Below are positions 20,579-36,463 of a stretch of 36,555 bases of DNA, piece after piece. The translations under genes and the position numbers were made by a program. Position 1 is the stretch's first letter; each line of letters opens with the position of its first letter. The DNA comes from Gaiellales bacterium. GTDB taxonomy: Bacteria > Actinomycetota > Thermoleophilia > Gaiellales > JAICJC01. Location: contig DASQYY010000137.1 of the NCBI GenBank assembly GCA_035638975.1, positions 1 to 36,555 of the forward strand, written 5' to 3'. The notes beneath the pieces were generated by a model, which saw only the letters and a list, made by a program, of their open reading frames with translations, did no database searches and was not told the origin of the DNA.

Positions 20579-21016
20579 CTAAAGGTCCACCCAGATCGTG
20601 ACCGGCCCGTCGTTGACGAGCGCCACCCGCATGTGCGCGCCGAAGCGGCCGGTCTGCACCGGTAGGCCGAGCGCGCGCAGCTCCTCCGCCACCGCATCCA
20701 CCAGCCGCCGGCCCAGCTCGGGCTCCGCCGCCCCCGTGAACCCCGGCCGGTTGCCCCGCGATACGTCGGCGTAGAGCGTGAACTGCGAGACAACAAGCAC
20801 CTCGCCGCGCACGTCCACCACCGACCTGTTCATGCGGCCCTCGTCGTCGGCGAACACCCGCAGCCGCGCGATCTTGCCGGCCAGCTGGGCCGCTTTCGCC
20901 TCGTCGTCGCCCTCGCCCGCGGCGACCAGCGCGAGCAGGCCCGGCCCGACGGCGGCGATGCGCTCGCCGCCGACCTCCACCGACGCCTCGGCCACCCGCT
21001 GCAGCAGCGCTCGCAC
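20579..21016 (-). CDS. dtd: D-aminoacyl-tRNA deacylase (145 aa)
   Basis: (V)[14 protein letters not shown]...GPGLLALV...SQFTLYAD...GNRPGF...[20 protein letters not shown]. The GTG start at 21016 gives the canonical length. The 189-aa track ORF is an upstream run-on. Confidence 0.9.
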
Positions 21017-21094
21017 GGCGTCCGGATTCACCCTCTGGGGGGAAGTCCCTGCTATCCTTCGGCTCACTGTCAGCGTGAGAGGGCGGGCCGAGCA

Positions 21095-21119
21095 GGTGGG
21101 TGAGAACCCACCTTTTTTT
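21095..21119 (+). terminator. canonical intrinsic terminator in the rimP-nusA-infB leader, GGTGGGT-GAGA-ACCCACC-TTTTTTT
   Basis: 7-bp stem, GNRA-type tetraloop and a 7-T tract. It is the only U-tailed terminator I see in this window. It lies 30 nt upstream of the rimP ATG and is nested in an outer 7-bp helix, GAGGGCG (21079-85) / CGCCCTC (21120-26). Confidence 0.7.
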
Positions 21120-21148
21120 CGCCCTCGTGGAGGTTCGAGGAGGTGCAA

Positions 21149-21592
21149 ATGGGACGCTCAGCAGAGTTGGCGCAGCAGATCGAGACGACCCTTCGGGACC
21201 GTGTCCCGGAGGTCGAGGTGCTGCTCGCGGAGCAGCCCAGCCCCGGCCTTGTCCGCGTCACCATCGACCGGCCCGGCGGCGCCGTCGACCTCGACCTGTG
21301 CGAGCGTGTCACCCGCGAGCTCGCGGCCGTCCGGCAGCGCTACGCGCTGGAGGTGTCGTCCCCCGGCCTCGACCGCCCGCTCGTCAAGCCCGAGCACTAC
21401 CGGCGCGCGGTCGGCAGCCGCGTGCACGTGCGCACGGAGCAGCCGGTCGCCGGGCGGCGGCAGTTCACTGGCACGTTGATCGACGCACGGAACGACGAGA
21501 TCGAGATCGACCTCGACGGTGAGCGCACGAGCTTGCCGTATGCGGCTATCCGCCGGGGGAATCTGGTCGCTGAGGTGGGAGGCAAGCGGTGA
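21149..21592 (+). CDS. rimP: ribosome maturation factor RimP
   Basis: ...[14 protein letters not shown]...FTGTL... is the RimP signature. ATG 21149 is preceded by GAGGAGG. It lies upstream of nusA. Confidence 0.88.
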
Positions 21593-22887
21593 GCAAGGAA
21601 CTCTTGGAGGGCGTGAAGCTGCTCGAGAAGGAGCGCGGGATCGAGGCGGAGACGCTGCTCTCGGCCATTGAGGAGGCGCTGCTGGCGGCATACAAGAAGA
21701 TGCCCGACGCGCGCCATCCGGTGCGCGTCGACCTCGACCGCGAGTCCGGCGATTACGTCGTCTGGTCGGTCACCCCCGACGCCTGGGAGGCATACCTCGA
21801 GGTGCATCCGCACCACCGCCCGGTCGAGCCCGAGGAGGAGCCGGAGCGGCCGCTCGACGCCCCCGCCGCGCAGGGCGCCGAGGGCGAGCAGCCCGCCGAG
21901 GAGGAGCCCGAGCCCGAGATCGAGTGGGGCTGGTTCCAGCCTGCGCAGATGGTGGACGTCACGCCCGAGGGCTTCAGCCGCATCGCCGGGCAGACGGCGA
22001 AGCAGGTGCTGCGCCAGCGCATCCACGAGGCGGAGCGCTCGATCATGTACGACGAGTACGCCGACCGCGTCGGCGAGATCGTCACCGGCATCGTGCAGCA
22101 GGACGACAACCGCTATGCCTTCGTCGACCTGGGCAAGATGGAGGCGATCCTGCCGGGGTCGGAGAAGGTGCCGGGCGAGCGCTACGAGCAGGGCAGCCGC
22201 ATCAAGGCCGTGATCATCGAGGTGCGCTCCGAGGGCAAGGGCCCGCAGGTGGTCCTGTCGCGCCGAAGCGACGAGCTGATCCGCCAGCTGTTCGAGCTCG
22301 AGGTGCCCGAGATCGCCGACGGCCTGGTCAGCATCCGCGCCATCGCCCGCGAGCCCGGCTACCGCGCCAAGATCGCGGTCGAGTCGCGTGTCCAGGGCGT
22401 CGACCCGGTGGGCGCGTGCGTCGGCCCCCGCGGCTCGCGCGTGCGCATGGTCGTGTCCGAGCTGCGGGGTGAGAAGATCGACATCATCCCGTGGAACGAC
22501 GAGCCCGCGCGCTTCGTCGCCAAGGCGCTCGCGCCGGCGAAGGTACGCGAGGTCTACGTCGACGACGACGCGCAGCAGGCGACGGTGGTCGTCCCCGACG
22601 GCGAGCTGTCGCTCGCGATCGGCAAGGAGGGCCTGAACGCCCGCCTCGCGCACAGGCTGACCGGCTGGAGGATCGACATCGTCTCGGAGACCGAGCACTA
22701 CGCCGAGGCGGAGGACGTGCCCTATACGGGCGCCGAGGGCGAGGAGGACGAGTTCCCGGGCCGCTGCATCGCGGTGACGTCGTCCGGCAAGCGCTGCCCC
22801 AACCAGGCGCTCGACGGGAGCCGCTACTGCGGCGTCCCGGCGCACCGTGAGCTGGCCGCCAAGGAGGAGGGAGCAGCCGCGTCGTAA
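21589..22887 (+). CDS. nusA: transcription termination/antitermination factor NusA, with a Cys3-His C-terminal tail
   Basis: NTD (FSRIAGQTAKQVLRQRIHEAER), S1 (GEIVTGIVQQ...), KH1/KH2 (...VGACVGPRGSRV...LAIGKEGLNARLA). GTGA overlap with the rimP stop. Confidence 0.95.
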   Translation: MSKELLEGVKLLEKERGIEAETLLSAIEEALLAAYKKMPDARHPVRVDLDRESGDYVVWSVTPDAWEAYLEVHPHHRPVEPEEEPERPLDAPAAQGAEGEQPAEEEPEPEIEWGWFQPAQMVDVTPEGFSRIAGQTAKQVLRQRIHEAERSIMYDEYADRVGEIVTGIVQQDDNRYAFVDLGKMEAILPGSEKVPGERYEQGSRIKAVIIEVRSEGKGPQVVLSRRSDELIRQLFELEVPEIADGLVSIRAIAREPGYRAKIAVESRVQGVDPVGACVGPRGSRVRMVVSELRGEKIDIIPWNDEPARFVAKALAPAKVREVYVDDDAQQATVVVPDGELSLAIGKEGLNARLAHRLTGWRIDIVSETEHYAEAEDVPYTGAEGEEDEFPGRCIAVTSSGKRCPNQALDGSRYCGVPAHRELAAKEEGAAAS

Positions 22888-22895
22888 GCGATCCG

Positions 22896-23156
22896 ATCAG
22901 GCAGTGCGCCGGGTGTGGCCGGCGCCGCCCACAGGCAGAGCTGGTGCGGCTGGCGGTCGCCGACGAGGTGATCGTGGCCGATCCCACCAGGCGGCTGCCC
23001 GGGCGCGGCGCCTATCTGTGCCCTGATCGCAGCTGCCTTGGCCAGGCGCTCAAGCGCGGCGCGCTGCCGCGGAGGCTACGTGTGAGCGCTGAGGCCGCGG
23101 CGGGGTTGGAGGAACGGGTTCGCCTTGAGGGCGGGCCCGGTGTCTGGGAGAATTGA
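22896..23156 (+). CDS. ylxR: YlxR/DUF448 family protein; start codon unresolved
   Basis: In-frame translation from 22893 reads PIRQCAGCGRRRPQAELVRLAV...LPGRGAYLCPDRSCL..., the DUF448 signature. The first canonical start (GTG 22944) lies after the CxxC-ELVR motif. ATC 22896 occupies the position where the Met normally is. The 3' end is firm. The 5' end is either 22896 (non-canonical) or 22944. Confidence 0.75.
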   Translation: MRQCAGCGRRRPQAELVRLAVADEVIVADPTRRLPGRGAYLCPDRSCLGQALKRGALPRRLRVSAEAAAGLEERVRLEGGPGVWEN

Positions 23157-23162
23157 GGTGAG

Positions 23163-25247
23163 ATGGCAAAGAAGACGGTGACCGATATCGCGCGCGAGCA
23201 GGGCGTCTCCGAGGCCGAGGTCAAGCAGAAGCTGGACGAGGCCGGCGCAGCCGCGCCCGCTGACGACCTGGTCGACGACGAAGACGTCCGTCGCGCCTTC
23301 GGCGCCAAGGCAACCGTGCCGGCCCAGGAGCCGGGCCAGCCCGCACGGCATGCGCGCCCCCAGCGCGGCGCCCAGCCCGGCCGCCGCCGTAGGGTTGTGA
23401 TCGACTCGCAGGCCGGCCGCCGCCCCGGGCAGGGGAAGCGCGAGCGCGGTCCGCGGCCCGAGGCCAAGCGCGAGCCCGAGGTGCCGACCGGGCCGGTGAA
23501 GGTCGAGTCCGGCGTCACGGTCAAGGATCTCGCCGAGAAGCTCGGCATCAGCCCCGCCAAGATCATCGCCTACATGATGGGCGAGGGGCAGATGGTGACG
23601 ATGACCGTGTCGCTCTCCGACGACGACGTGCAGCTGATCGGCCTCGAGTTCGGCCGTGAGGTGATCATCCAGCACGCCGCGGATGAGGAGGAGCCCGAGG
23701 AAGCGTCCTACGAGGACGCGCCTGACTCCCTCGTCACACGGCCGCCCGTCGTCACGATCATGGGCCACGTCGACCATGGCAAGACGACGCTGCTCGACGC
23801 CATCCGCGAGTCCTCGGTCGTCGAGACGGAGGCAGGCGGCATCACCCAGCACATCGGCGCCTACCAGGTCGACGTCGACGGAGGGCGCAAAGTCACCTTC
23901 CTCGACACCCCGGGCCACGAGGCCTTCACCGCCATGCGCGCCCGCGGGGCGAAGGTGACGGATGTCGCCGTGCTGGTCGTCGCGGCGGACGACGGCGTCA
24001 TGCCGCAGACGGTCGAGGCGATCGACCACGCGAAGGCGGCCGAAGTGCCGATCGTGGTGGCCGTGAACAAGATCGACAAGGAGGACGCGAACCCCGAGCG
24101 GGTGCGCGGCGAGCTGGTCAACCAGGGCCTGCAGCCGGAGGAGTGGGGCGGCGAGACCATCTTCGTCGACGTCTCCGCCAAGGCCAAGCAGAACCTCGAC
24201 CAGCTGCTCGAGATGCTGCTCCTGCAGGCTGACGTGCTCGAGCTCAAGGCCAACCCGAAGGCCGAGGCCAGCGGCGTCATCATCGAGTCGCGGCTCGACG
24301 TCGGGCGCGGGCCGGTGGCGACGCTGCTCGTGCAGCGCGGCACCCTGCGCGTCGGGGATGCGGTCGTCGCCGGCGACGCCTGGGGGCGCGTCAAGGCACT
24401 GAACGACGCCAACGGCAAGCGCGTCAAAGAGGCCGGCCCGGCCGTGCCGGTCGAGATCCTCGGATTCGACAAGCCGCCGCCGGCCGGCGAGTTCTGCCGC
24501 GTGGTCGAGAACGACCGCGTGGCGCGTCAGCTTGCGCAGAAGCGCGCCCAGCGCATCCGCACCGAGATGCTGGCCCGCCGCAGCAAGGCGGTCAGCCTCG
24601 AGGATCTCTTCTCCGCCGTCCAGGAGGGCGCGGTGCAGGAGCTCGGCCTGATCATCAAGGCCGACGTCCAGGGTTCCGTCGAGGCCGCCGAGGGCGAGAT
24701 CGCGAAGATCCAGCACCCGGAGGTCACGGTCAGCGTCATCCACTCCGGCGTCGGCGGCATCACGGCCAGCGACATCAACCTGGCCGCGGCGTCGAACGCG
24801 ATCGTCGTCGGCTTCAATGTCCGGCCAAACGCCGAGGCCAAGTCGCTGGCCGAGCGCGAGGGCGTCGACATCCGCACCTACCGGGTGATCTACCAGCTGA
24901 CCGAGGACATCCAGCAGGCCCTGATCGGCATGCTCGCCCCCGAGCAGGTCGAGGAGGTGATCGGTGAGCTGGAGGTGCGTCAGACCTTCAAGGTCTCGCG
25001 CCTGGGGACGATCGCCGGCTGCATGGTCACAAGCGGCGTCGTCACGCGCGGCGCGCAGGTGCGCCTGATCCGCGACGGCACGATCGTCCACGACGGCCGG
25101 ATCGGCACGCTGCGCCGCTTCCAGGACGACGTGCGCGAGGTGCAGCAGGGCTTCGAGTGCGGCGTCACGATCGACGGCTACAACGACGTCAAGGAAGGCG
25201 ACGTGCTCGAGGTCTACACCGTCCGCGAGGTCGCCCGCACCGCCTAG
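23163..25247 (+). CDS. infB: translation initiation factor IF-2
   Basis: N-terminal IF2_N ([20 protein letters not shown]), G domain ([14 protein letters not shown]...DTPGHEAF...NKID), and C-terminal domains. Confidence 0.97.
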
Positions 25248-26830
25248 CTCGGCCGCGGCGCGAGCAGCCGGGCCACCCGCTCGGTGCCGATGCCGCTGAC
25301 CAGCAGCCGTTCACGCCGGTCGGAGAGCAGATGCTGCGTCCAATCGACGGTGCCTCCGTCGGCGACCGAGTACGTCGTGCCGGCCAGCTCGGCGTCGATG
25401 TTGAGCGAGATGCCGCGGTAGTAGCCGACCGCATGCAACCGGCCGGGCCGAAAGCCGAGCCGGGCACCCGGGAACCGGTCGGCCAGCGGCGCGAGCACCC
25501 GGTCGGCCATGCGCCCCAGCCGTTCCCATCCCGCGGGGGCGGAGGCCGAGAAGCGGGGCAGCTCGACCCCGGCGCCGGCCAGGATGTGCTCGGGGTCCGC
25601 GCCGCTGATCCGCCACTCGGCGGCGAGGTCGAGGAGATCGACACCGGCGCCGCGGCACCGGGAAGCGAGGGCGGCAGTGTCGCTGACCTCAACGGTGACC
25701 CGGCCGACCGCATGGCCGCTGCGTCGGAGCCGCTCGAGCATCTCCAGGTAGACGGCCAGCTGCGCACGGAGCGCCCAGGTCGCAAACCCGTCGCCGGGCA
25801 TGGCCCGCCCGCCGCTGGCGAGCGTGAACAGGCCGAAGTGGCGTTGCCAGCCGGCCGGTGGCTGCTGCATCCGCAGCACCCGAGCGTTCGCGGCGAGCGC
25901 GGGCTGCGCCTCGCCGGCCCGCCGGCGAAGCGCGACCTCGAGCGCAAGGCTGCTGGTTGGATCGGCGAGCACCTCGCCGCCCCTCACCGTCGCCACGCTG
26001 AGGTTCTGGTCGAGCCCGGCGAGCACCGCGTTGGTCGCTCCCGGGGCGACCGGCGGGAGGGTGACCGCCTCGAACGCCTGGGCGGCGTCCAGCGCCGATG
26101 CCTCCACCTCGTGGAGCAGCCGTGCATCGACCGGCGCCGGCTGGTACACGTCGCTGCCGAGCCGATCCGACAGCAGATCGGCCGGGGCCCTGCGACGGGC
26201 CCGCGAGCGCGCCAGGTGGAGCATCAGCGACCGCTGGTCGCCGGCCGGCAACGCCTCGATCAGGGCGAGCGGGTCGTGACCGGCCAGCGCACCACGCAGC
26301 CGGGCGATCACGGCCCCGTCCGGCGGACGGTCGAGCGGCCGCGCCATCCGCAGCTCCATCAGCTCCGGAGCCGCCGCCGCCGGGTGCGGCCCGGCGATCA
26401 CCTCGAATCCGGCGCGCCGGTAGAGGTCGATCGCGGCGCGGTTGTGCTCCCGCACGTCGAGCTCCACCGTGGTCGCACCGACGCGCTTCGCCCACGCACA
26501 GACCGCCTCGACCAGCTCGGAGCCCAAACGGCGGCCGCGGGCGGCCGGCTCCACCCACATGGCGACCAGCAGGGCGGCCCGGTCCTCGCCCAGCCGAAGC
26601 CCGGTCGCGCTGCCCAGGTGCCGCTCGCCGTCGACGGCAACGAAGGTCGCGACACCCAGGTCGCCCGCCGCTCTGCGGGCACGGTCCTCCCAGAACGCGG
26701 GCGGCTCGGCGGCCTCCTCGTCCAGCCGGCTGTGGAAGGCGTCCGGCGAATCCGCGAGCATCGCCAGCCGCACCCGCCGCAGCTCCTCCGCCTCTGAGGG
26801 ACGCAGCCGGCGGACGACCACGCCGCTCAC
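25244..26830 (-). CDS. fusion protein: N-terminal GNAT acetyltransferase plus a C-terminal class II aaRS-like (HisRS/HisZ-like) core, 528 aa
   Basis: GNAT part: LLVAMWVEPAARGRRLGSELVEAVCAWAK...LDVREHNRAAIDLYRRAGF. C-terminal part has motif-like strings: AFEAVTLPPV; VRGGEVLADPTSSLALEV; ARVLRMQQPPAGWQRHFGLFTL; AVGYYRGISLNI...ADGGTVDWTQ...LVSGIGTERV. GTG 26830 overlaps the antiporter stop (GTGA). Its stop overlaps the infB stop on the other strand (CTAG, 25244-25247). Confidence 0.7.
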   Translation of the reverse strand: MSGVVVRRLRPSEAEELRRVRLAMLADSPDAFHSRLDEEAAEPPAFWEDRARRAAGDLGVATFVAVDGERHLGSATGLRLGEDRAALLVAMWVEPAARGRRLGSELVEAVCAWAKRVGATTVELDVREHNRAAIDLYRRAGFEVIAGPHPAAAAPELMELRMARPLDRPPDGAVIARLRGALAGHDPLALIEALPAGDQRSLMLHLARSRARRRAPADLLSDRLGSDVYQPAPVDARLLHEVEASALDAAQAFEAVTLPPVAPGATNAVLAGLDQNLSVATVRGGEVLADPTSSLALEVALRRRAGEAQPALAANARVLRMQQPPAGWQRHFGLFTLASGGRAMPGDGFATWALRAQLAVYLEMLERLRRSGHAVGRVTVEVSDTAALASRCRGAGVDLLDLAAEWRISGADPEHILAGAGVELPRFSASAPAGWERLGRMADRVLAPLADRFPGARLGFRPGRLHAVGYYRGISLNIDAELAGTTYSVADGGTVDWTQHLLSDRRERLLVSGIGTERVARLLAPRPS

Positions 26831-28305
26831 GCCTCGACCTCCGCCTCCGCCTGGCGACCCTCGAACAGCCCGGCCAGCCCGTCGCTCGCACCGAGCAGCA
26901 GCACCTCGTCTCCGGCCTCGAGCACGGTGCTCCCGCGCGCCTGGAGGGCTGCGCCGTCGCGGATCAGGAGGCTGATCCAGGGGTGGCGGCCCAACGGCAG
27001 GTCGCGGATCGCGACGCCGTCGGCGGCAGACCCGGCCTCGACAAGAACCCGGCGCACGCCGCGCGGCTCGTCGCGCAGCCCCACCGAGACGTGCCACGGC
27101 TCCCTGTCGCTCTGCGTCATGGGAACGCCCGCCAGGCGCGCGGCCACGCTGACCAGCGACCCCTGCACGACCACCGAGAACATCACCACGACGAACACGA
27201 TCCCATAGATCCGGTGCGCGTCCTGGGCGCCGTCCAGCAGGGCGAAGGCGGCGAGCAGGATCGGCACCGCGCCGCGCATGCCGGCCCAGGAGATGAAGGC
27301 CTTCTCGCCCCGGCGAAGGTCGGCCGGGGCCAGCATCGCGGCCACGACCACGGGCCGCACGGCGAACGTCAGCACCGCGGCGATGAGGAGCCCGTCCAGC
27401 CACACGTTCTGCAGGCCCAGCGTGCCGATATCGATGGTCAGCCCCAGCGCCACGAACACGACGATCTCGCCCAGGCTGGCGAGCACCGACGTGACGTGCT
27501 CGACCTCCTGCTTGTAGGGCGCCCGGAGGTCCCCGACCATGATGCCAGCGACGAACACGGCGAGGAACCCGGATCCGTGCGCCACGGCGGCGACGCCGTA
27601 GACGATGCCCGCTCCGGCGAGCGTGAGCAGCGGATACAGCGCCTCGTCGGGGAGGGTGACGCGGCGCATCGCCCGGCCCAGCAGCACCCCGCCCAGGACG
27701 CCGACGGCCAGCCCCACCGCCATCTCCACGGCGAAGTCCGACAAGATCGTCGCGACCCCGCCTCCGCCGCCGTCCGCCGCGTCGAGCAGCCCGATCACGA
27801 GCGCGATGCCGACCGGATCGTTCATGCCTGACTCGCCCTTGAGGATGTCGTCGCTGCGGCCCGCCACCTCCCGTCCGCCGAGCACCGAGAACATGACCGC
27901 AGGGTCGGTCGGGGCGACGGCGGCGCCGATCAGCAGAGCCGGCGTCCAGCCGAAGCCCAGCACCGCGTGGACGAAGACGGCCACCAGGCCGGCCACCGCG
28001 AAGGTGCCCGGGACCCCCAGCGCGACGATCGGCAAGAGCGATCGGCGAAACCGGCTGAGGCCGATGTCCATGCCGCCGTCGAACAGGATCACGATCAGCG
28101 CGACCAGGCAGATCCGCTCGACGTCGCGGATGGAGAGCAGCGGGGTCAGCGACGGGGTGATGTCCGACGACACCGCCGCGACCGCGAGGAAGAGCGCGGG
28201 CGCGGGGATGCGCAGCCGGTCGCTGACACGGCTGGAGAGGATGGCCGCAGCGAAGCCGACCGCCACGATCAGCACCGCGCGGCCGATCTCGGCGGCGTCG
28301 GTCAT
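26827..28305 (-). CDS. K+/H+ (cation:proton) antiporter, NhaP2/CvrA-type, with a C-terminal TrkA-C domain
   Basis: Polytopic: ...ILFDGGMDIGL...APTDPA...ESGMNDPVGIALV... Soluble C-terminus: ...VAIRDLPLGRHPWISLLIRDGAALQARGSTVLEAGDEVLLL. Confidence 0.9.
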   Translation of the reverse strand: MTDAAEIGRAVLIVAVGFAAAILSSRVSDRLRIPAPALFLAVAAVSSDITPSLTPLLSIRDVERICLVALIVILFDGGMDIGLSRFRRSLLPIVALGVPGTFAVAGLVAVFVHAVLGFGWTPALLIGAAVAPTDPAVMFSVLGGREVAGRSDDILKGESGMNDPVGIALVIGLLDAADGGGGGVATILSDFAVEMAVGLAVGVLGGVLLGRAMRRVTLPDEALYPLLTLAGAGIVYGVAAVAHGSGFLAVFVAGIMVGDLRAPYKQEVEHVTSVLASLGEIVVFVALGLTIDIGTLGLQNVWLDGLLIAAVLTFAVRPVVVAAMLAPADLRRGEKAFISWAGMRGAVPILLAAFALLDGAQDAHRIYGIVFVVVMFSVVVQGSLVSVAARLAGVPMTQSDREPWHVSVGLRDEPRGVRRVLVEAGSAADGVAIRDLPLGRHPWISLLIRDGAALQARGSTVLEAGDEVLLLGASDGLAGLFEGRQAEAEVEA

Positions 28306-28364
28306 GCGGCCATCGTAGTTGCCGCGGGCACCGCCACCCGGCCCGCCCTCCTAGACTGGGGTGG

Positions 28365-28673
28365 ATGACGGAGGGCTTCGTCGGCATCCTGCGGTTCGAG
28401 CTGCATCTTCCCGCGAACGGCTCCCTCAAGGGCAAGCGGAAGGTGCTGCTGCAGGTGAAGAGCAGGCTCGAGCGCAGGTTCGGGGCGTCCGTCGCCGAGA
28501 CCGGCTATCACGAGCTCTGGCAGCGAGCCCAGCTCGTGATGGTGGTCGCACGCCGGGAGTCGTCGGAGGCCGTGCACGCCCTCGAGCAGGCCCGCGGCTA
28601 CCTTTCGTCGCAGGAGTTCGAGCTTTCGCGCTCGGACTGGCAGGTGGTGTCCGTCGAGGAGGCGATCGGGTGA
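28365..28673 (+). CDS. ylxP: DUF503 (YlxP-like) protein
   Basis: GILRFELHLPANGSLKGKRKVLLQVKSRLERRF... is typical DUF503. Its position immediately before rbfA is conserved. Confidence 0.85.
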   Translation: MTEGFVGILRFELHLPANGSLKGKRKVLLQVKSRLERRFGASVAETGYHELWQRAQLVMVVARRESSEAVHALEQARGYLSSQEFELSRSDWQVVSVEEAIG

Positions 28674-29047
28674 GCGAGCGGATGCGGCGGGTGAACGAGT
28701 CGCTGCGCAAGGTGCTGGCCGACGGTGTCGAACGCCTCGGCGACCCGTCGATCGGGTTCGTCACCGTGACCGGCGTGCGCGCCACGACCGACTTCAGCCA
28801 GGCTGTCGTCTACGTCAGCGTGCTCGGCAGCGACAAGCGGCGCGCGCGGTCGCTGGCTGCCCTCGAGCGCGCCCACGGCGTGCTGCAGCAGCGGGTCGCC
28901 CGGGAACTGCGCCTGCGGCGTACCCCTCAGCTGATCTTCCAGTATGATGAGACCGTTGACCGCGCGCTGCGCATGAGCGAGCTGATCGATCAGGTCGTGC
29001 CAGCGTCATCGCAGGAGCAGCGCGGCGACGACGACTCCTCCACATGA
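28670..29047 (+). CDS. rbfA: ribosome-binding factor A
   Basis: RMRRVNESLRKVLADGVERL.DP..GFVTVTGVRATTDFSQAVVYVSVLG...LRRTPQLIF. GTG 28670 overlaps the ylxP stop; ATG 28682 is the alternative start. Confidence 0.9.
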   Translation: MSERMRRVNESLRKVLADGVERLGDPSIGFVTVTGVRATTDFSQAVVYVSVLGSDKRRARSLAALERAHGVLQQRVARELRLRRTPQLIFQYDETVDRALRMSELIDQVVPASSQEQRGDDDSST

Positions 29048-30066
29048 CCGATACCGAGACGACGACCCGCGACCTCGCCGAGGTGGTGGCCGCCCTTGCG
29101 GCCGCCGACCGGATCCTGATCGCGTCCCACGAGAACCCCGACGGCGACGCGATCGGCAGCATGTCCGCCGCGGCTCAGGCGCTGCGCGGTGCCGGGAAGC
29201 AGGTGCGCCTCTACCTGCACGCCGACTCGCCGCTGCCCCACGAGTACGGGTTCCTGGCCATGGACGGCCTCGAGCGCCAGATCGATCCGGGCTCGACCGC
29301 GGGCTGGACGCTGCTCGCTGTCGACTGCGGCAACGAGTCGCGGCTGGGGCCTGACCACGAGCAGCTGCGGGCGGGGTTCGACCAGGTGATCGACGTCGAC
29401 CATCATCACGACAACTCACGGTTCGGCGACGTCAACTACGTCGACGGCCATGCCTCGTCGACCGCCGAGATCCTGGCCCGCATCTTCGACGGGCTCGGCA
29501 TCGAGCTGACGCCACCCGTCGCCGAGGCCCTGTACGTCGGCCTCGTCACCGACACCGGCCGCTTCCAGTACCGCACCACCAGCCCCGCAGCGCTGCGCCT
29601 GGCAGCCCACCTGGTGGAGGCCGGCGCCGACGTGCACAAGGTGTTCGAGCTCGTGTTCGAGACTGTGCCCTACGGCAAGAAGCGGCTGCTCGGCCGGGTG
29701 CTCGAGCACATGCAGCGTTACGAGGGCGGTCGGCTGCTCGTCAGCTACGTGACGCGCGACGACCTGGCCCTGGTCGAGGGCGACGAGGCCACGACGGAGG
29801 GCCTGATCGACGATCTCCGCGAGGTGGACGGCGTGCAGGTGGCGGCGCTGATCCGCGAGCAGGTGCCGCTGGACGACGGGACGATCACCCCCAACCGCGT
29901 GTCGCTGCGGTCGCGCGGCTCGATCGACGTCTCGCGCATCGCCCGCAAGTCGCAGGGCGGGGGCCACAAGCAGGCGGCCGGATTCTCGCATCCGGGCTCG
30001 ATCGAGCAGATCCGCCAGTTCATCGTCGACGAGGTGGCCAGCCAGCTCGCCGAGTCGGCGGCCTGA
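29044..30066 (+). CDS. nrnA: DHH-family phosphoesterase (NrnA-type oligoribonuclease / pAp phosphatase)
   Basis: ILIASHENPDGDAIGS...AVDCGN...IDVDHHHDN...GLVTDTGRFQY...GGGHKQAAG. These are the DHH and DHHA1 motifs. Confidence 0.88.
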   Translation: MTDTETTTRDLAEVVAALAAADRILIASHENPDGDAIGSMSAAAQALRGAGKQVRLYLHADSPLPHEYGFLAMDGLERQIDPGSTAGWTLLAVDCGNESRLGPDHEQLRAGFDQVIDVDHHHDNSRFGDVNYVDGHASSTAEILARIFDGLGIELTPPVAEALYVGLVTDTGRFQYRTTSPAALRLAAHLVEAGADVHKVFELVFETVPYGKKRLLGRVLEHMQRYEGGRLLVSYVTRDDLALVEGDEATTEGLIDDLREVDGVQVAALIREQVPLDDGTITPNRVSLRSRGSIDVSRIARKSQGGGHKQAAGFSHPGSIEQIRQFIVDEVASQLAESAA

Positions 30067-30088
30067 TCCGCTCCGTAGACTGCGCGGC

Positions 30089-30934
30089 GTGACAGGGTTG
30101 CTGCTCGTCGACAAGCCCGCGGGCCCGACGTCCTTCGACGTCATCCGGCGCCTGCGCCCGGTGCTCGGCTCCAAGCTCGGTCATGCCGGCACGCTCGACC
30201 CGTTCGCCACCGGCCTGCTGCTGATCCTGGCCGGGAGGGCCACCCGGCTCGCCACCTTCCTGTCCGGGCTGGACAAGAGCTATCGCGCGGTCGTCCAGTT
30301 CGGATCCGAGTCCTCGACGCTCGACCCCGAGGGCGAGCTGCGGCCAACCGGCCGCGTTGCGGACGAGGCCTCCGTGCGCTCGGCCGCCGCAGCGATGACC
30401 GGGACGCTCATGCAGCAGGTGCCGCTGGCGTCGGCCGTGCGGGTCGGCGGTGAGCGCTCCTACGCCCGCATGCGGCGCGGCGAGCGCACCGCGCCGCCGC
30501 CGCGCGAGGTGCGGATCGACGCGCTCGACGTGGAGGCGTTCGACCCGCAGGCGCAGCGCGCGACGATCCACGTGCGCTGCTCGAAGGGCACGTACGTCCG
30601 CCAGATTGCGGCCGATCTGGGAGCCGCCACCAGCGCCGGCGCGTACTGCGCCGAGCTGCGGCGCCTCACCGTCGGCCCGTTCTCGGTGGACGACGCCGGG
30701 GCTCCTGCTGCGATCGACGAGCAGCCGGACGGGCCCTGGCACCGCAGCCTGCGCGAGGCGCTGCCGCACCTGCCGGAGCGCCTCCTCACCGAACAGGAGC
30801 GTGACGGCGTGCGTCACGGCCGGACGGTGGCGGGTGAGGCGGCGGGGCCGGTGCGGCTCGTCTACGGCGGGGAGCTGATCGCCGTCGCGCGAGGCGGCGA
30901 GAACGGCCTGCAGCCGGTGACGGTGCTTCAGTGA
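30089..30934 (+). CDS. truB: tRNA pseudouridine(55) synthase
   Basis: GLLLVDKPAGPTSFDVI...GHAGTLDPFATGLLLIL...KSYRAVVQFG. Confidence 0.93.
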   Translation: MTGLLLVDKPAGPTSFDVIRRLRPVLGSKLGHAGTLDPFATGLLLILAGRATRLATFLSGLDKSYRAVVQFGSESSTLDPEGELRPTGRVADEASVRSAAAAMTGTLMQQVPLASAVRVGGERSYARMRRGERTAPPPREVRIDALDVEAFDPQAQRATIHVRCSKGTYVRQIAADLGAATSAGAYCAELRRLTVGPFSVDDAGAPAAIDEQPDGPWHRSLREALPHLPERLLTEQERDGVRHGRTVAGEAAGPVRLVYGGELIAVARGGENGLQPVTVLQ

Positions 30935-31860
30935 TCGTCGCCGGCCTGGATGCGGTCGATCCGGCGCCGCGCGTCGTTGCGCTGGGGAGCTTCGACGGCG
31001 TCCACCTGGGGCACCAGCGCGTGATCGGAAGGACGGTGGAGGCCGCCGGCGAGCGGGGCGTCCGCCCGGCCGTCGTCACGTTCGAGCCCCACCCGATGCG
31101 CGTCCTGCGGCCTGAGCTGGCCCCGCGCGAGCTGTCCACCCCCGCGCGGCGCGCCGGGCTGATCGAGCAGCTCGGCCCCGATGAGCTGGTGGTGATCCCG
31201 TTCACCCATGAGTTCTCGCTGCTCGACCACGAGCGGTTCGCCGAGGAGGTGCTGCGCGACCGCCTGAGCGCCGTGCTCGTCATCGTCGGCAGCAACTTCC
31301 GCTACGGCCACCGCGCTCAGGGCACCATCGAGACGCTCGCCGCCTCGGGGGCGCGCCTGGGGTTCGACGTCGAGCCCTCACCGCTGGTCGAAGTGGACGG
31401 CACGCCGGTCTCGTCGTCACGCGTCCGTGACCTGCTCTCGGCCGGCGAGGTGGCGCATGCCGAGCGGCTGCTCGGGCGCCACCCCTGGCTGGACGGCGTG
31501 ATCGTGCGCGGCGACGGTCGCGGGCGCGAGCTCGGGTTCGCGACGGCGAACCTCGAGTGCTCGCCGCAGACCGCCTTCCCGGCGACCGGCGTCTACGCCG
31601 GCCGTGCGCACGTCGCCGCGGGCAGCCACCTCGCGGCCATCAGCGTGGGATACAACCCGACCTTCACGGACGACCGCGAGCACCTGCGCGTCGAGGCGCA
31701 CCTGCTCGACTTCAACGCCGACCTGTACGGCCAGCCGATGCACCTTGAGTTCACGCGTCGGCTGCGGGGTGAGGAGCGGTACGGCTCAGTGGAGGAGCTG
31801 GTGGAGCAGGTGCACCGGGACATCGCGGCGGTGCGATCCGGGGGTCAGGCGGAAGCCTGA
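30931..31860 (+). CDS. ribF: bifunctional riboflavin kinase / FMN adenylyltransferase
   Basis: VALGSFDGVHLGHQ...VTFEPHP...G.NFRYGH...SSSRVR...V.RGDGRGRELGFATANL...GVYAG. GTGA overlap with the truB stop. Confidence 0.93.
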   Translation: MIVAGLDAVDPAPRVVALGSFDGVHLGHQRVIGRTVEAAGERGVRPAVVTFEPHPMRVLRPELAPRELSTPARRAGLIEQLGPDELVVIPFTHEFSLLDHERFAEEVLRDRLSAVLVIVGSNFRYGHRAQGTIETLAASGARLGFDVEPSPLVEVDGTPVSSSRVRDLLSAGEVAHAERLLGRHPWLDGVIVRGDGRGRELGFATANLECSPQTAFPATGVYAGRAHVAAGSHLAAISVGYNPTFTDDREHLRVEAHLLDFNADLYGQPMHLEFTRRLRGEERYGSVEELVEQVHRDIAAVRSGGQAEA

Positions 31861-31862
31861 CC
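31843..31862. terminator. GGTCAGGC-GGAA-GCCTGACC hairpin spanning the ribF stop codon (possible bidirectional terminator; GGGGTCAG family)
   Basis: Perfect 8-bp stem with a 4-nt loop. The ribF TGA (31858-60) lies in the 3' arm. The convergent S51 gene stops at 31865-67, 3 nt beyond the hairpin. Confidence 0.45.
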
Positions 31863-31864
31863 GC

Positions 31865-32545
31865 TCATAGGCTCCGCACCGCCAGCGGCGTCTCGCCCGT
31901 CGCCTCCACCCGGAACGCCCGCCCGCCGTCGCGCTCGCTGATCGCCTCGTGCAGCTCCGTGCCGATGAAGTGCAGGCCGACGCCGTCGTCGGCGGCCCAG
32001 CCGGGCGGCAGTGCGCCCTTGGCAACCCACCTGGTGTAGGTCGGCCGGCGGAGCGGCTCTCCGTCGTAATGCGGGCAGAAGCTCCCCGGCAGCAGGCCGA
32101 GCCCGTCGTTCATCGGCCCCAGCCCCGCGCCGAACGAGTCCGTCGAGCAGCCCTCGAACCAGCAGTTGGCCCCGGCCGACAGCCCGCACAGGATCACGCC
32201 CGCCTCCCAGGCCGCGCGCAGCGCGGCATCGACGCCGTGCAGGCGCCAGACCGCAAGCATGTTGGCAGTGTTCCCGCCGCCCACGTAGACCACGTCCTGG
32301 TCGAGCAGGAACGCCGTGATGTCCGAGACCTCGCGCCAGAACAGGCCGAGCACCTCGGTCTCCGCGCGGTCACCCAGCGCCTCGTGGAAGCGCGCGATCT
32401 TCTCCTGGCTGTCGCCGGCGGCGGTGGGCACGTAGCAGACCCGCGGGCGCGACTTGCCCGTCAGCCCGAGGATGTGGTCGTCCAGCGGCCGGCCGTCCAT
32501 CGAGAATCCGCCGCCGCCCATGGCGACGATCTGCCGCGTGCTCAC
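31865..32545 (-). CDS. peptidase S51 family (dipeptidase E / cyanophycinase-like) protein, 226 aa
   Basis: [11 protein letters not shown]...CYVPTAAGD...[21 protein letters not shown]...[19 protein letters not shown] 32545 overlaps the stop of the upstream gene (GTGA). Confidence 0.8.
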
Positions 32546-33480
32546 ACGGCGACGGGCGTCACGCCCAGGCTCTCGAGCGTGCGTCGCAGGCCCTCGTCGA
32601 GCCCCACCTTCGGCTCCCACCCGAGGATCTCGCGTGCCCGCGTGATGTCCGGCTGCCGCACCTTCGGATCGTCCTCCGGAAGGCCCTCGAAGACGATCGG
32701 CGACGTCGTGCCGGTCACTCGCTGCACCCGCTCGGCCAGCTCGAGCAGCGTCATCTCGTTCGGGTTCCCGATGTTGACGGGCATGTGGTAGTCGCTCATC
32801 GCGAGCCGGAAGATGCCCTCGATCAGGTCGTCGACGTAGCAGAACGACCGCGTCTGGCTGCCGTCGCCGAACACTGTCAGCGGCTTGCCCTGCACCGCCT
32901 GGCGGATGAAGGTCGGGATGGCGCGCCCGTCGTGCTGCCGCATCCGCGGCCCGTAGGTGTTGAAGATGCGGACGATGTGCGTGTCCACGCCCTGCTGGCG
33001 GTGGTACGCCATCGTCATCGCCTCGGAGTAGCGCTTCGCCTCGTCGTAGACCCCGCGCGGGCCGACCGGGTTGACGTTGCCCCAGTACTCCTCCTGCTGC
33101 GGGTGCACCTCGGGATCGCCGTACACCTCGGAGGTGGAGGCGAGCAGGAACCTCGCGCGCTTGAACTTGGCCAGGCCGAGCGCGTTGTGCGTCCCGTAGG
33201 AGCCGACCTTCAGCGTGTGCAGCGGCAGGCGGAGGTAGTCGACCGGGCTGGCCGGGCTGGCCAGGTGGAACACCGCCTCGACCTGGCCCTCGACGTCGAT
33301 GTAGTCGACGCAGTTGTGGTACCGGAACTGGAAGGCGTCGTCACGCAGGTGCTTGACGTTCTCGAGGGAGCCGGTGTCGAGGTTGTCGAGGCAGACCACA
33401 CGCCAGCCGCGCTCGAGCAGGTACTCACAGAGATGGGAGCCGAGAAAGCCGGCGCCGCCGGTGACGACTGCAGTGCTCAA
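32542..33480 (-). CDS. UDP-glucuronate decarboxylase (UXS-type SDR epimerase/dehydratase)
   Basis: [35 protein letters not shown]...[10 protein letters not shown]...YDEAKR...[13 protein letters not shown] start at 33480. Confidence 0.9.
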
Positions 33481-33646
33481 GCGATGAGAACCTCCTGGTT
33501 GCCTGGCTCAAGCCTACAGCCGTCGCCCGGGAGCGGAAGCACCCCTGTGCTACCCTGCCAGGCGACCGCACCGCGGACCGGCGCCGCTTGCCAGCGCCGA
33601 TCTGGGATGCAGGCGACTACGAGCACACGGCAAGGAGGTGGTAGGC

Positions 33647-33916
33647 GTGCCGCTTACCCAGGAGCAGAAGCAGGAGATCGTCGGGAAGCACGGCCGGGAC
33701 GAGAAGGACACCGGCTCCACGCGAGTGCAGATCGCACTCCTCACCCAGCGGATCACCGAGCTCACGGAGCACATGAAGGTGCACCAGCATGACCACCACT
33801 CACGCCGCGGCCTGCTGAAGCTGGTCGGCCGCCGGCGCCGGCTTCTGACATATCTGCAGAAGCACGACCTGGAGGGCTACCGGGCCCTCATCAAGGAGCT
33901 GGGCCTGCGCCGCTAG
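33647..33916 (+). CDS. rpsO: 30S ribosomal protein S15 (89 aa)
   Basis: (V)[72 protein letters not shown] 33647 lies 8 nt after AAGGAGG and gives the canonical length. Confidence 0.95.
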
Positions 33917-33985
33917 GGCGCGATGGCAGCTCAACGGAGGATGGGCCGGCGATCCGGCCGGCCCGCGGAAGGGACAGACGAGGAC

Positions 33986-36463
<2,478 letters not shown>

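Follow-up and report, generated by a model that had tools for sequence, protein, structure and literature searches.

Repeatedly, a paralog of a class II aminoacyl-tRNA synthetase (aaRS) without tRNA-binding domains has turned out to be an enzyme or a regulator of an unexpected kind, as in the case of AsnA, EpmA, HisZ and the amino-acid:carrier-protein ligases. Active class II enzymes need the motif-3 arginine for ATP binding, and AsnA, EpmA/PoxA and the amino-acid:carrier-protein ligases keep the arginines of both motif 2 and motif 3. Ligases are also found together with GNAT acetyltransferases, namely in MshC and MshD of mycothiol synthesis and in Ngg, the N-acetylglutaminylglutamine synthetase that combines a GNAT with an ATP-grasp ligase; in both cases the product is an N-acetyl-aminoacyl compound. 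For histidyl-tRNA synthetase (HisRS), surveys of aaRS paralogs give HisZ as the sole bacterial paralog (PMC9437257; PMC5388404). Of the HisRS paralogs, only HisZ and GCN2 are characterised; both are regulators without catalytic activity and work through a pseudo-active site (PMC9437257; PMC4335047), and the HisRS-like domain of GCN2 binds uncharged tRNA (PMC4335047). Here we analyse a gene of a Gaiellales bacterium (assembly GCA_035638975.1, contig DASQYY010000137.1, positions 1 to 36,555; this whole stretch of 36,555 nucleotides (nt) is referred to as the window) that encodes a GNAT joined to a HisRS/HisZ-like core. The product is a two-module polypeptide with a core that has no part for anticodon reading, with conserved arginine-rich residues at the active-site motifs and with a coupling to GNATs that is found repeatedly in its family.

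A GNAT domain and a HisRS-like core in one reading frame

The fusion gene occupies 25244..26830 on the minus strand, as do all parts of the protein described below, and has 528 codons followed by a TAG stop. A database protein (P0001) matches the window protein at all 528 residues, the identical protein is present on two other contigs, and the start site is common to the 528-residue form and to 15 full-length homologues of 56-82% identity; this backs a single 528-codon frame with the ends that a preceding reading of the DNA, made from the sequence alone (the sequence-only reading), had given it. The GC content of the window is 70-76%; as a consequence, the frame around the gene is mechanically open for 1063 codons (1063 amino acids, aa), while the real form has 528 aa. 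These values, together with the many other mechanical open reading frames (ORFs), would fit an artefact, either two genes joined by a sequencing frameshift or a non-coding high-GC frame, but this explanation is refuted and we give it practically no credence: the fusion ORF is intact in the related loci L002, L005-L012 and L014 and in the proteins P0003-P0024, it is unbroken at 510-537 aa and 52-82% identity in at least 11 independent Gaiellales assemblies, the same protein recurs on the two further contigs, and both domains are modelled as confidently folded. The fusion is genuine.

Residues 1-165 (26336..26830) are a GNAT acetyltransferase domain, as the sequence-only reading had it. Pfam PF00583 matches residues 42-142 with E=2.3e-17 and 63.8 bits against a cut-off of 20.7, PF13302 spans residues 9-143, and PF13508, PF13302, PF13673 and PF08445 likewise score above their Pfam cut-offs in this region; GNAT structures are also matched in the PDB search with the window protein, and the domain has a predicted local distance difference test score (pLDDT) of 80-94 in the full-length model. 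By profile, membership in the GNAT superfamily is unambiguous, and acyl-CoA-dependent transfer is the predicted activity. Among the 25 NCBIfam matches listed at E<=1 for the whole protein there are GNAT models only, all of them far under their equivalog cut-offs (best scores: N-acetylglutamate synthase family, 38.5 bits against 280; RimI, 37.5 against 86.4), and the domain is therefore assigned to no named subfamily. Its closest structural neighbours are small-molecule N-acetyltransferases that act on amino-acid analogues and polyamines (PA4866, PaiA, ArsN, YncA and SpeG). Motif A, the acetyl-CoA pyrophosphate loop ([QR]-x-x-G-x-[GA]), is RGRRLG at residues 98-103 (26522..26539): the canonical RxxGxG is found in 15 of 16 clade members, and in the window protein an arginine takes the first glycine position (G101R). 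The identical database protein has the same substitution, which is therefore no one-off read error.

The remainder of the protein was assigned by its modelled fold. An AlphaFold2 (AF2) model of the C-terminal region, built from 17 homologues, has a pLDDT of 84.3 and a predicted template modelling (TM) score of 0.84, and the top 50 Foldseek matches in the PDB are solely HisRS, HisZ and the HisRS-like domain of GCN2, with E-values from 7.2e-14 to about 2.5e-11 at a probability of 1.00, TM scores of 0.5-0.6 and 12-18% identity. In the full-length AF2 model the pLDDT is 74, with low confidence in the linker and in loops. The model thus places residues 236-528 (25247..26125) in the HisRS-like branch of class II cores. 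Since the protein terminates 10 residues past the motif-3-like strand, it has no anticodon-binding domain; the HisRS/HisZ-like core without such a domain, proposed from the letters of the DNA, is what fold and protein end both point to.

Direct searches of Pfam, NCBIfam and PDB returned the GNAT alone: residues 160-528 have no significant sequence match in any of the three, and the window protein does not match PF13393 (tRNA-synt_His) at E<=1. The relationship to HisRS became visible through family profiles and the structure model. PF13393 is matched by 6 of 17 relatives (best E=6.8e-6); among relatives with a listed PF13393 score, the 25-bit cut-off is exceeded by P0057 alone (33.8 bits), and P0091 reaches 24.7. 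A profile of 147 family sequences matches Thermus thermophilus HisRS (1adj) with E=0.006, and in this alignment RxxxxGYY, DGG and SGxGxE[RL] of the family land on RGLDYY, GGGRYD and motif 3 of HisRS, respectively. Alignment with hhalign to a hand-entered E. coli HisRS sequence paired the same C-terminal motifs and nothing else, and with this same sequence global and forced local alignments of the N-terminal half were meaningless or had a probability of about 0%. The HisRS-like motif strings that the sequence-only reading had listed in order are therefore in two classes: the C-terminal ones (RGLDYY-like, GGGRYD-like and motif-3-like) are supported by profile, and the equivalents of motif 1, HisA and motif 2 are placed by our own reading of motif order, because the profile alignments of the N-terminal half are not significant.

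An unannotated family with recurrent links to GNATs

A word-indexed search identified 38 relatives, and a profile search run exhaustively over 1.84 billion cluster representatives returned 2,213 matches at E<=1e-3, 1,564 at E<=1e-10 and 815 at E<=1e-30. The family thus comprises about 1,500-2,200 clusters at 50% identity and is distinct from bona fide HisRS and HisZ, as these would have returned far more matches. The majority of its members stand alone, with lengths of 290-390 aa. Matches in genomes come from Streptomyces hoynatensis, Pseudonocardia acaciae, Steroidobacteraceae, Blastocatellia, Haliangiales, a metagenome-assembled genome (MAG) of Paceibacterota, a Clostridia MAG and a Bryobacteraceae protein, and the family is present in Actinomycetota, Acidobacteriota, Proteobacteria, Myxococcota, Patescibacteria and Clostridia. 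For its HisRS-like domain there is no Pfam or NCBIfam model. At source the proteins are named "hypothetical protein" or, in the case of fusions, "GNAT family" or "RimJ/RimL" N-acetyltransferase, and with such labels annotation pipelines overlook the larger of the two domains. Literature searches for HisRS-like or HisZ-like proteins with a GNAT yielded nothing relevant except GCN2 and HisZ. That the architecture is not a described family, as had been supposed, agrees with its absence from Pfam, NCBIfam, the aaRS-paralog surveys and the literature searched: this is an undescribed family of HisRS paralogs with a new and recurrent GNAT architecture, and a gap in the aaRS-paralog catalogue, where a separate HisRS-like family has neither a name nor a profile model.

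Fusions to GNATs were surveyed among the 150 best family representatives, and here all members of more than about 490 aa are fusions. The GNAT is N-terminal in P0015, P0063, P0091 and P0150 and C-terminal in P0070 (the Bryobacteraceae protein) and P0079; these GNATs are 28-33% identical to the one of the window or belong to another Pfam subfamily (Acetyltransf_3). In the metagenome loci L044 and L051 a separate GNAT gene lies directly upstream with an ATGA overlap, its product 40% identical to the window GNAT, whereas the HisRS-like protein is only about 31% identical. A further separate upstream GNAT gene is present in L073 at a distance of 10 nt, and L024 has a convergent GNAT neighbour (39% identical). 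Together with the window GNAT, the GNATs of L024, L044, L073, P0063 and P0150 make up a group of 30-40% identity. An apparent fusion ORF of 500 aa in L051 was rejected: its GNAT is in another frame, and the arrangement is that of L044, with separate overlapping genes. Members linked to a GNAT make up only about 5% of the family. Still, fusions in both orders together with operon pairs constitute a Rosetta-stone signal of functional coupling, and such recurrent independent pairing suggests that the two parts work together.

Conservation of residues was counted over 172 near-full-length family members, which share about 30-40% overall identity. The GNAT is followed by a linker and a family-specific N-terminal helical extension (residues 166-235, 26126..26335) with four helices in the AF2 model and a conserved D-x-x-S-L-[LM]-L; this part has low confidence in the full-length model. 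The motif-1-like helix end and strand, AFEAVTLPPVAPG, are at residues 252-264 (26039..26077), with L258, P260 and P263 kept in at least 93% of members, and the HisA-like hairpin, TVRGGEVLADPT, is at residues 281-292 (25955..25990), with R283, E286, D290 and T292 kept in at least 94%. In the AF2 model, confidence is lowest (pLDDT <50) at residues 274-289, where the family has its most conserved hairpin (R283, E286, V287); this combination suggests a mobile flap that may become ordered upon binding of a ligand or partner.

The motif-2-like strands and loop, RVLRMQ...RHFGLFTLASG, span residues 317-340 (25811..25882). R317, R320, H331 and F332 are conserved in 99-100% and Q322 in 92% of the family; R317 (170 of 172) and F332 (172 of 172) are placed as the motif-2 arginine and the adenine-stacking aromatic residue by motif order and secondary structure. 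By the same motif order, R317-x-x-R320-x-Q322 parallels fR113-x-E-R116-x-Q118 of HisRS and F332 parallels F125. Between motifs 2 and 3 there is a helical insertion (25475..25678), seen as helices by AF2 and as a gap in the short members (about 310 aa) of the 17-sequence alignment; in the profile search these short members appear as matches in two stretches around it. RLHAVGYYRG at residues 464-473 (25412..25441) is the counterpart of RGLDYY of HisRS (R464 in 94%, Y470 in 98%, Y471 in 100%), R464 lying two residues upstream of the position of R259. DGGTVDW at residues 491-497 (25340..25360) corresponds to the HisB motif GGGRYD of HisRS, with D491 in 99% and G492, G493 and W497 in 100%. The motif-3-like SGIGTERV is at residues 512-519 (25274..25297), where S512 and G515 are conserved and the position of E517 is acidic in 95%. 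Taken over the whole protein, the residues conserved in at least 90% of the 172 members are R283, E286, D290, T292, R303, R317, R320, Q322, H331, F332, R464, Y470, Y471, D491, G492, G493, W497, E507 and R508.

Several positions depart from those of a synthetase. Position 518 of motif 3 is an arginine in 68 of 172 members (about 40%) and a leucine in 82; R518 is invariant in the clade of the window protein (16 of 16), and the other GNAT-linked members have L, Y, F or R. The acidic position of motif 2 is hydrophobic (L319 here; L, V or I across the family), and the position of the motif-2 loop arginine is variable. By motif alignment, the positions of HisRS Q127 and E131, which contact histidine, are L334 and A338 (A, V or C) and are hydrophobic or small throughout the family; among the histidine contacts of the E. 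coli enzyme (E83, Q127, E131 and Y264) the YY pair alone is kept, as far as the motif-order alignment of the N-terminal half can be followed. With the motif-3 arginine present in about 40% of the family, a hydrophobic residue in place of the motif-2 acidic one and replacement of the histidine-specific residues, canonical amino-acid adenylation is doubtful.

Apart from GNATs, no conserved operon partner of the stand-alone members was found at 13 genome loci and 80 metagenome loci, where synteny is lineage-specific only. The neighbours GGDEF, PEGA, GntR-aminotransferase, branched-chain amino acid permease, GH39, DUF4317 and CoA ligase are unrelated among loci and were rejected as functional clues. 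At 24 loci within L058-L107 (for example L100:3999-4919), with family proteins of 67-100% identity, a gene for an AlkZ-related winged-helix protein lies 27 nt upstream on the same strand; genes for an ArsR regulator and an AHSA1/SRPBCC protein are convergent downstream, and three of the loci have a CPA-type antiporter gene 1-2 kb upstream. The AlkZ/ArsR/AHSA1 neighbourhood is probably inherited synteny and was not used as a clue either.

Three single cases are recorded for themselves. P0080 (615 aa) carries a C-terminal domain of the metallo-beta-lactamase fold in place of a GNAT; enzymes of this fold include thioester hydrolases, and the protein may hint at thioester chemistry. In a Paceibacterota MAG (L023:4634-8665), a member of 25% identity is part of a co-directional run with ATP-grasp, RpiB and a 372-aa class II synthetase-like protein (PF00152); this protein of the Asp/Lys/Asn type looks too short for an anticodon-binding domain, and a cluster of ligase paralogs is possible. 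In L001:6648-11512, the stand-alone P0030 is encoded between a GFO/IDH/MocA oxidoreductase and an NAD-dependent epimerase, with a myo-inositol-1-phosphate synthase gene just past the epimerase, which fits sugar or inositol-conjugate chemistry.

Coupling to an antiporter gene within a translation gene cluster

Upstream of the fusion gene and translationally coupled to it lies the gene of a K+/H+ antiporter of the NhaP2/CvrA type with a C-terminal TrkA_C (RCK_C) domain (26827..28305, minus strand; PF00999 with E=1e-55 and PF02080), which scores 341 bits on the NCBIfam model NF003716 "potassium/proton antiporter" against a cut-off of 355. The two genes share GTGA (26827..26830, minus strand), the GTG start of the fusion gene overlapping the TGA stop of the antiporter gene. 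A 4-nt [AG]TGA overlap is found at 10 of 10 related loci, so the coupling noted from the sequence is both real and conserved. Synteny was followed by tblastn of the window proteins against the retrieved loci: the same arrangement is present at L002, L004-L012 and L014, all of them Gaiellales or Thermoleophilia MAGs, the antiporter pairing being kept in 11 loci, and in the conserved order rbfA and DUF503 on one strand are followed by the antiporter and GNAT::HisRS-like genes on the other, and these by convergent infB. At the same site of a further Gaiellales relative (L003, 226-2744), the HisRS-like gene is joined to the antiporter gene by the 4-nt overlap and lacks a GNAT domain altogether. 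Within the Gaiellales clade a GNAT has therefore been gained or lost, and the constant pair of this clade is the antiporter and the HisRS-like protein. Among distant relatives, none of the 13 genome loci has an adjacent antiporter gene, and of the 80 metagenome loci only 3, all of a single lineage, show a CPA gene, at a distance of 1-2 kb: the antiporter link is limited to the Gaiellales clade.

At its other end the fusion gene meets infB (23163..25247, plus strand), a convergent neighbour encoding IF-2 (Pfam IF-2, GTP_EFTU and IF2_N), which is context and not part of the system. The stop of the fusion gene reads CTA on the plus strand (25244-25246), the infB stop TAG is at 25245-25247, and the palindrome CTAG (25244..25247) is thus common to both; this overlap, also pointed out earlier, recurs in 5 of 9 related loci. 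With no spacer at this end, transcripts from each side must run antisense into the other gene.

The antiporter and fusion cassette (25244-28305) is placed antisense within a canonical nusA-infB-DUF503-rbfA-nrnA(DHH)-truB-ribF-...-pnp cluster (21589-36460) and splits infB from rbfA. The divergent starts of the antiporter gene (28305) and of DUF503 (28365) are only about 59 bp apart. Two plus-strand ORFs of the window, 20778-21479 (233 aa) and 32785-33792 (335 aa), have no Pfam match at E<=1e-5; since rimP and rpsO are expected nearby in the housekeeping cluster, the two may be high-GC frames that were called wrongly.

Possible functions and comparison with known systems

Most likely no aminoacyl-tRNA is made by the HisRS-like module, which probably does not carry out canonical ATP-dependent adenylation either. 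By analogy with HisZ and GCN2, we favour a ligand-binding pseudo-active site that would work together with the GNAT over a ligase-plus-GNAT pathway, and put the probability of this reading at roughly 40%. The remodelled site would bind a small anionic or amino-acid-like ligand, and the bound ligand would either be presented to the fused GNAT or gate it allosterically. HisZ, where histidine controls HisG, and the HisRS-like domain of GCN2, where tRNA controls the fused kinase, would be the parallels with the same fold. In favour of this reading are also about 20 near-invariant polar residues, rich in arginine, which would line a pocket where a synthetase has its active site, and the acetyltransferases of amino-acid analogues and polyamines to which the GNAT is closest in structure. 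In the Gaiellales clade, the fusion protein would be produced in fixed stoichiometric coupling with the NhaP2-type K+/H+ antiporter, which would point, more weakly, to a link between the output of acetylation and ion, pH or osmotic homeostasis there.

Several points weigh against a pseudo-active site. The regulatory role is read from analogy and from the absence of some canonical residues, while R317, F332, R464, the GG of HisB and, in the clade, R518 are all present and compatible with an ATP site. A single pocket lined by the conserved residues is judged from where they fall in the motifs. More than 90% of members stand alone and have no conserved neighbour, which would suit an enzyme acting on its own no less well than a regulatory subunit. 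Residues of the N-terminal half were mapped by our own motif alignment, in a region where profile alignments are not significant, and this mapping is to be taken as provisional. On the side of the GNAT, G101R might weaken acetyl-CoA binding.

Much of this would suit a two-step biosynthetic enzyme, as the sequence-only reading had proposed: an active class II ligase would activate histidine or another amino acid by adenylation and attach it to an amine, thiol or hydroxyl acceptor other than tRNA, and the GNAT would N-acetylate the product. We regard this as possible, with the odds against it. The motif-2 R317 and F332, the R464/YY/DGG block aligned to HisRS and the clade-invariant R518 are in place, the very strong conservation of the polar residues is enzyme-like, the distribution as lone genes is that of AsnA or EpmA, and a recurring GNAT is what a tailoring step would require; the GNATs closest in structure act on the alpha-amino group of amino-acid analogues, a stand-alone member is encoded near an inositol-1-phosphate synthase (L001), and antiporter coupling would suit a compatible solute or a thiol buffer as product. 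Yet leucine, phenylalanine or tyrosine replaces the motif-3 arginine in about 60% of the family, GNAT-fused members included, the motif-2 acidic residue is absent and the loop arginine position variable, genes that would provide the acceptor or belong to a pathway are not conserved near any of the genome and metagenome loci examined, and both known HisRS paralogs are non-catalytic. It is these departures from the synthetase motifs, together with the precedent of HisZ and GCN2, that the ligand-binding pseudo-active site accommodates.

If the antiporter were the true partner, the HisRS-like protein would serve, alone or together with its GNAT, as an accessory or regulatory subunit that binds the TrkA_C/RCK domain and tunes transport to a metabolite, comparable to KefF and KefG acting on KefC and KefB. 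The overlap at all 10 related loci (52-82% protein identity), with the GNAT-less L003 among them, and the ligand-gated RCK_C domain of the antiporter speak for this. The association is confined to one Gaiellales clade and to a single syntenic site, however, and may be mere inheritance; the distant loci do not share it, and the recurrent GNAT link of the family would be left unexplained. We consider a subunit of this kind unlikely. Less probable still is a module for the acceptor end of tRNA or for aminoacyl-tRNA, in which the core would hold a 3' or 5' end of tRNA and the GNAT would acetylate aminoacyl-tRNA, as TacT/AtaT toxins do, or a translation component. By our motif alignment, the invariant R320 and Q322 occupy the positions of E. 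coli HisRS R116 and Q118, which recognise G-1:C73, and an arginine-rich surface (R283, R302-304, R508), tRNA binding by GCN2, the site in the nusA-infB-rbfA cluster and, weakly, RimI among the best NCBIfam matches of the GNAT would all suit such a role. This is set against a protein with no anticodon-binding or other RNA-binding domain, a placement among translation genes that is clade-specific, and a GNAT with small-molecule enzymes as closest structures; there is neither a match to PADLOC or toxin-type models nor an antitoxin-like partner gene, and with no PADLOC match an anti-phage defence or toxin function was rejected. The GNAT link that recurs across the family, left aside by an antiporter subunit, is part of the pseudo-active-site reading that we prefer.

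Should the favoured reading hold, HisZ/GCN2-style pseudo-active-site allostery would be extended to bacterial acetylation; should the core be catalytic instead, class II adenylation would be possible without the motif-3 arginine. Put more broadly, the family may add a third functional class to HisZ and GCN2 among the HisRS paralogs, a bacterial metabolite- or tRNA-end-sensing pseudo-synthetase that gates a dedicated acetyltransferase; or else it may be an active ligase whose ATP site has been re-invented and can dispense with the motif-3 arginine. In both cases the outcome would be a new acetylation pathway linked to amino acids and, in Gaiellales, hard-wired to K+/H+ exchange by translational coupling. 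We offer this tentatively, as less likely than not. The near-invariant pocket residues and the independent, recurrent GNAT link make the fusion testable as one polypeptide with two pockets and with few point mutants.

Among the systems to which the locus can be compared, KefF and KefG share with the fusion protein that they are small cytoplasmic proteins from an overlapping, coupled gene pair with a CPA-type K+/H+ transporter bearing an RCK-type domain; but they are flavodoxin-like quinone oxidoreductases encoded upstream of their transporter, while the HisRS-like protein (with the GNAT) is encoded downstream and in one clade. Ngg is, like the fusion protein, a single GNAT::ligase polypeptide, and its model TIGR03103 gives a weak match here, to the GNAT part only. 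MshC is a class I CysRS paralog and the ligase of Ngg is an ATP-grasp enzyme, so neither has a HisRS-like core and the likeness is one of functional analogy, not homology. AsnA, EpmA/PoxA and the amino-acid:carrier-protein ligases are stand-alone class II cores with non-tRNA acceptors and a lone-gene distribution; they differ in their descent from the AspRS/AsnRS, LysRS and SerRS/GlyRS lineages and not from HisRS. With R317, F332, R464 and R518 present and the motif-2 acidic residue missing, the window protein has a partial set of adenylation motifs.

HisRS itself provides the best structural match (1wu7, E=7e-14; also 4rdx and 4phc) and, with 1adj, the best profile match, and the motif-1, HisA-like, motif-2, RGLDYY-like, HisB-like and motif-3-like segments follow in the same order. 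The fusion protein is nevertheless not a HisRS: it has neither the anticodon-binding domain nor the histidine contacts nor the motif-2 glutamate, the motif-3 arginine is not conserved in its family, and it stays under the profile threshold. HisZ is similar in size and likewise a HisRS-like core without an anticodon-binding domain, with non-canonical catalytic motifs, that works with a partner enzyme, and it is among the best Foldseek matches (8oy0, 6fu7, 3od1 and 1z7m, E about 1e-12). The match is one of fold only, at about 12-15% identity, however, and the partner of HisZ is the phosphoribosyltransferase HisG, in place of which there is a GNAT here. No HisZ model is among the NCBIfam matches listed for the whole protein, there is no HisG domain among the window genes scanned or the annotated neighbours in related loci, and unlike HisZ the family has the N-terminal helical extension and invariants of its own (DPT, RxxRxQ, HF, DGGxxxW and KER); the protein is thus not a HisZ either. 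GCN2 is eukaryotic, keeps an anticodon-binding-like region, binds tRNA and the ribosome and has a kinase as output where the fusion protein has an acetyltransferase, but it shares the arrangement of a HisRS-like module covalently joined to an enzyme domain, which in GCN2 is the kinase under its control, and its HisRS-like domain is among the Foldseek matches (8t7t and 9f58).

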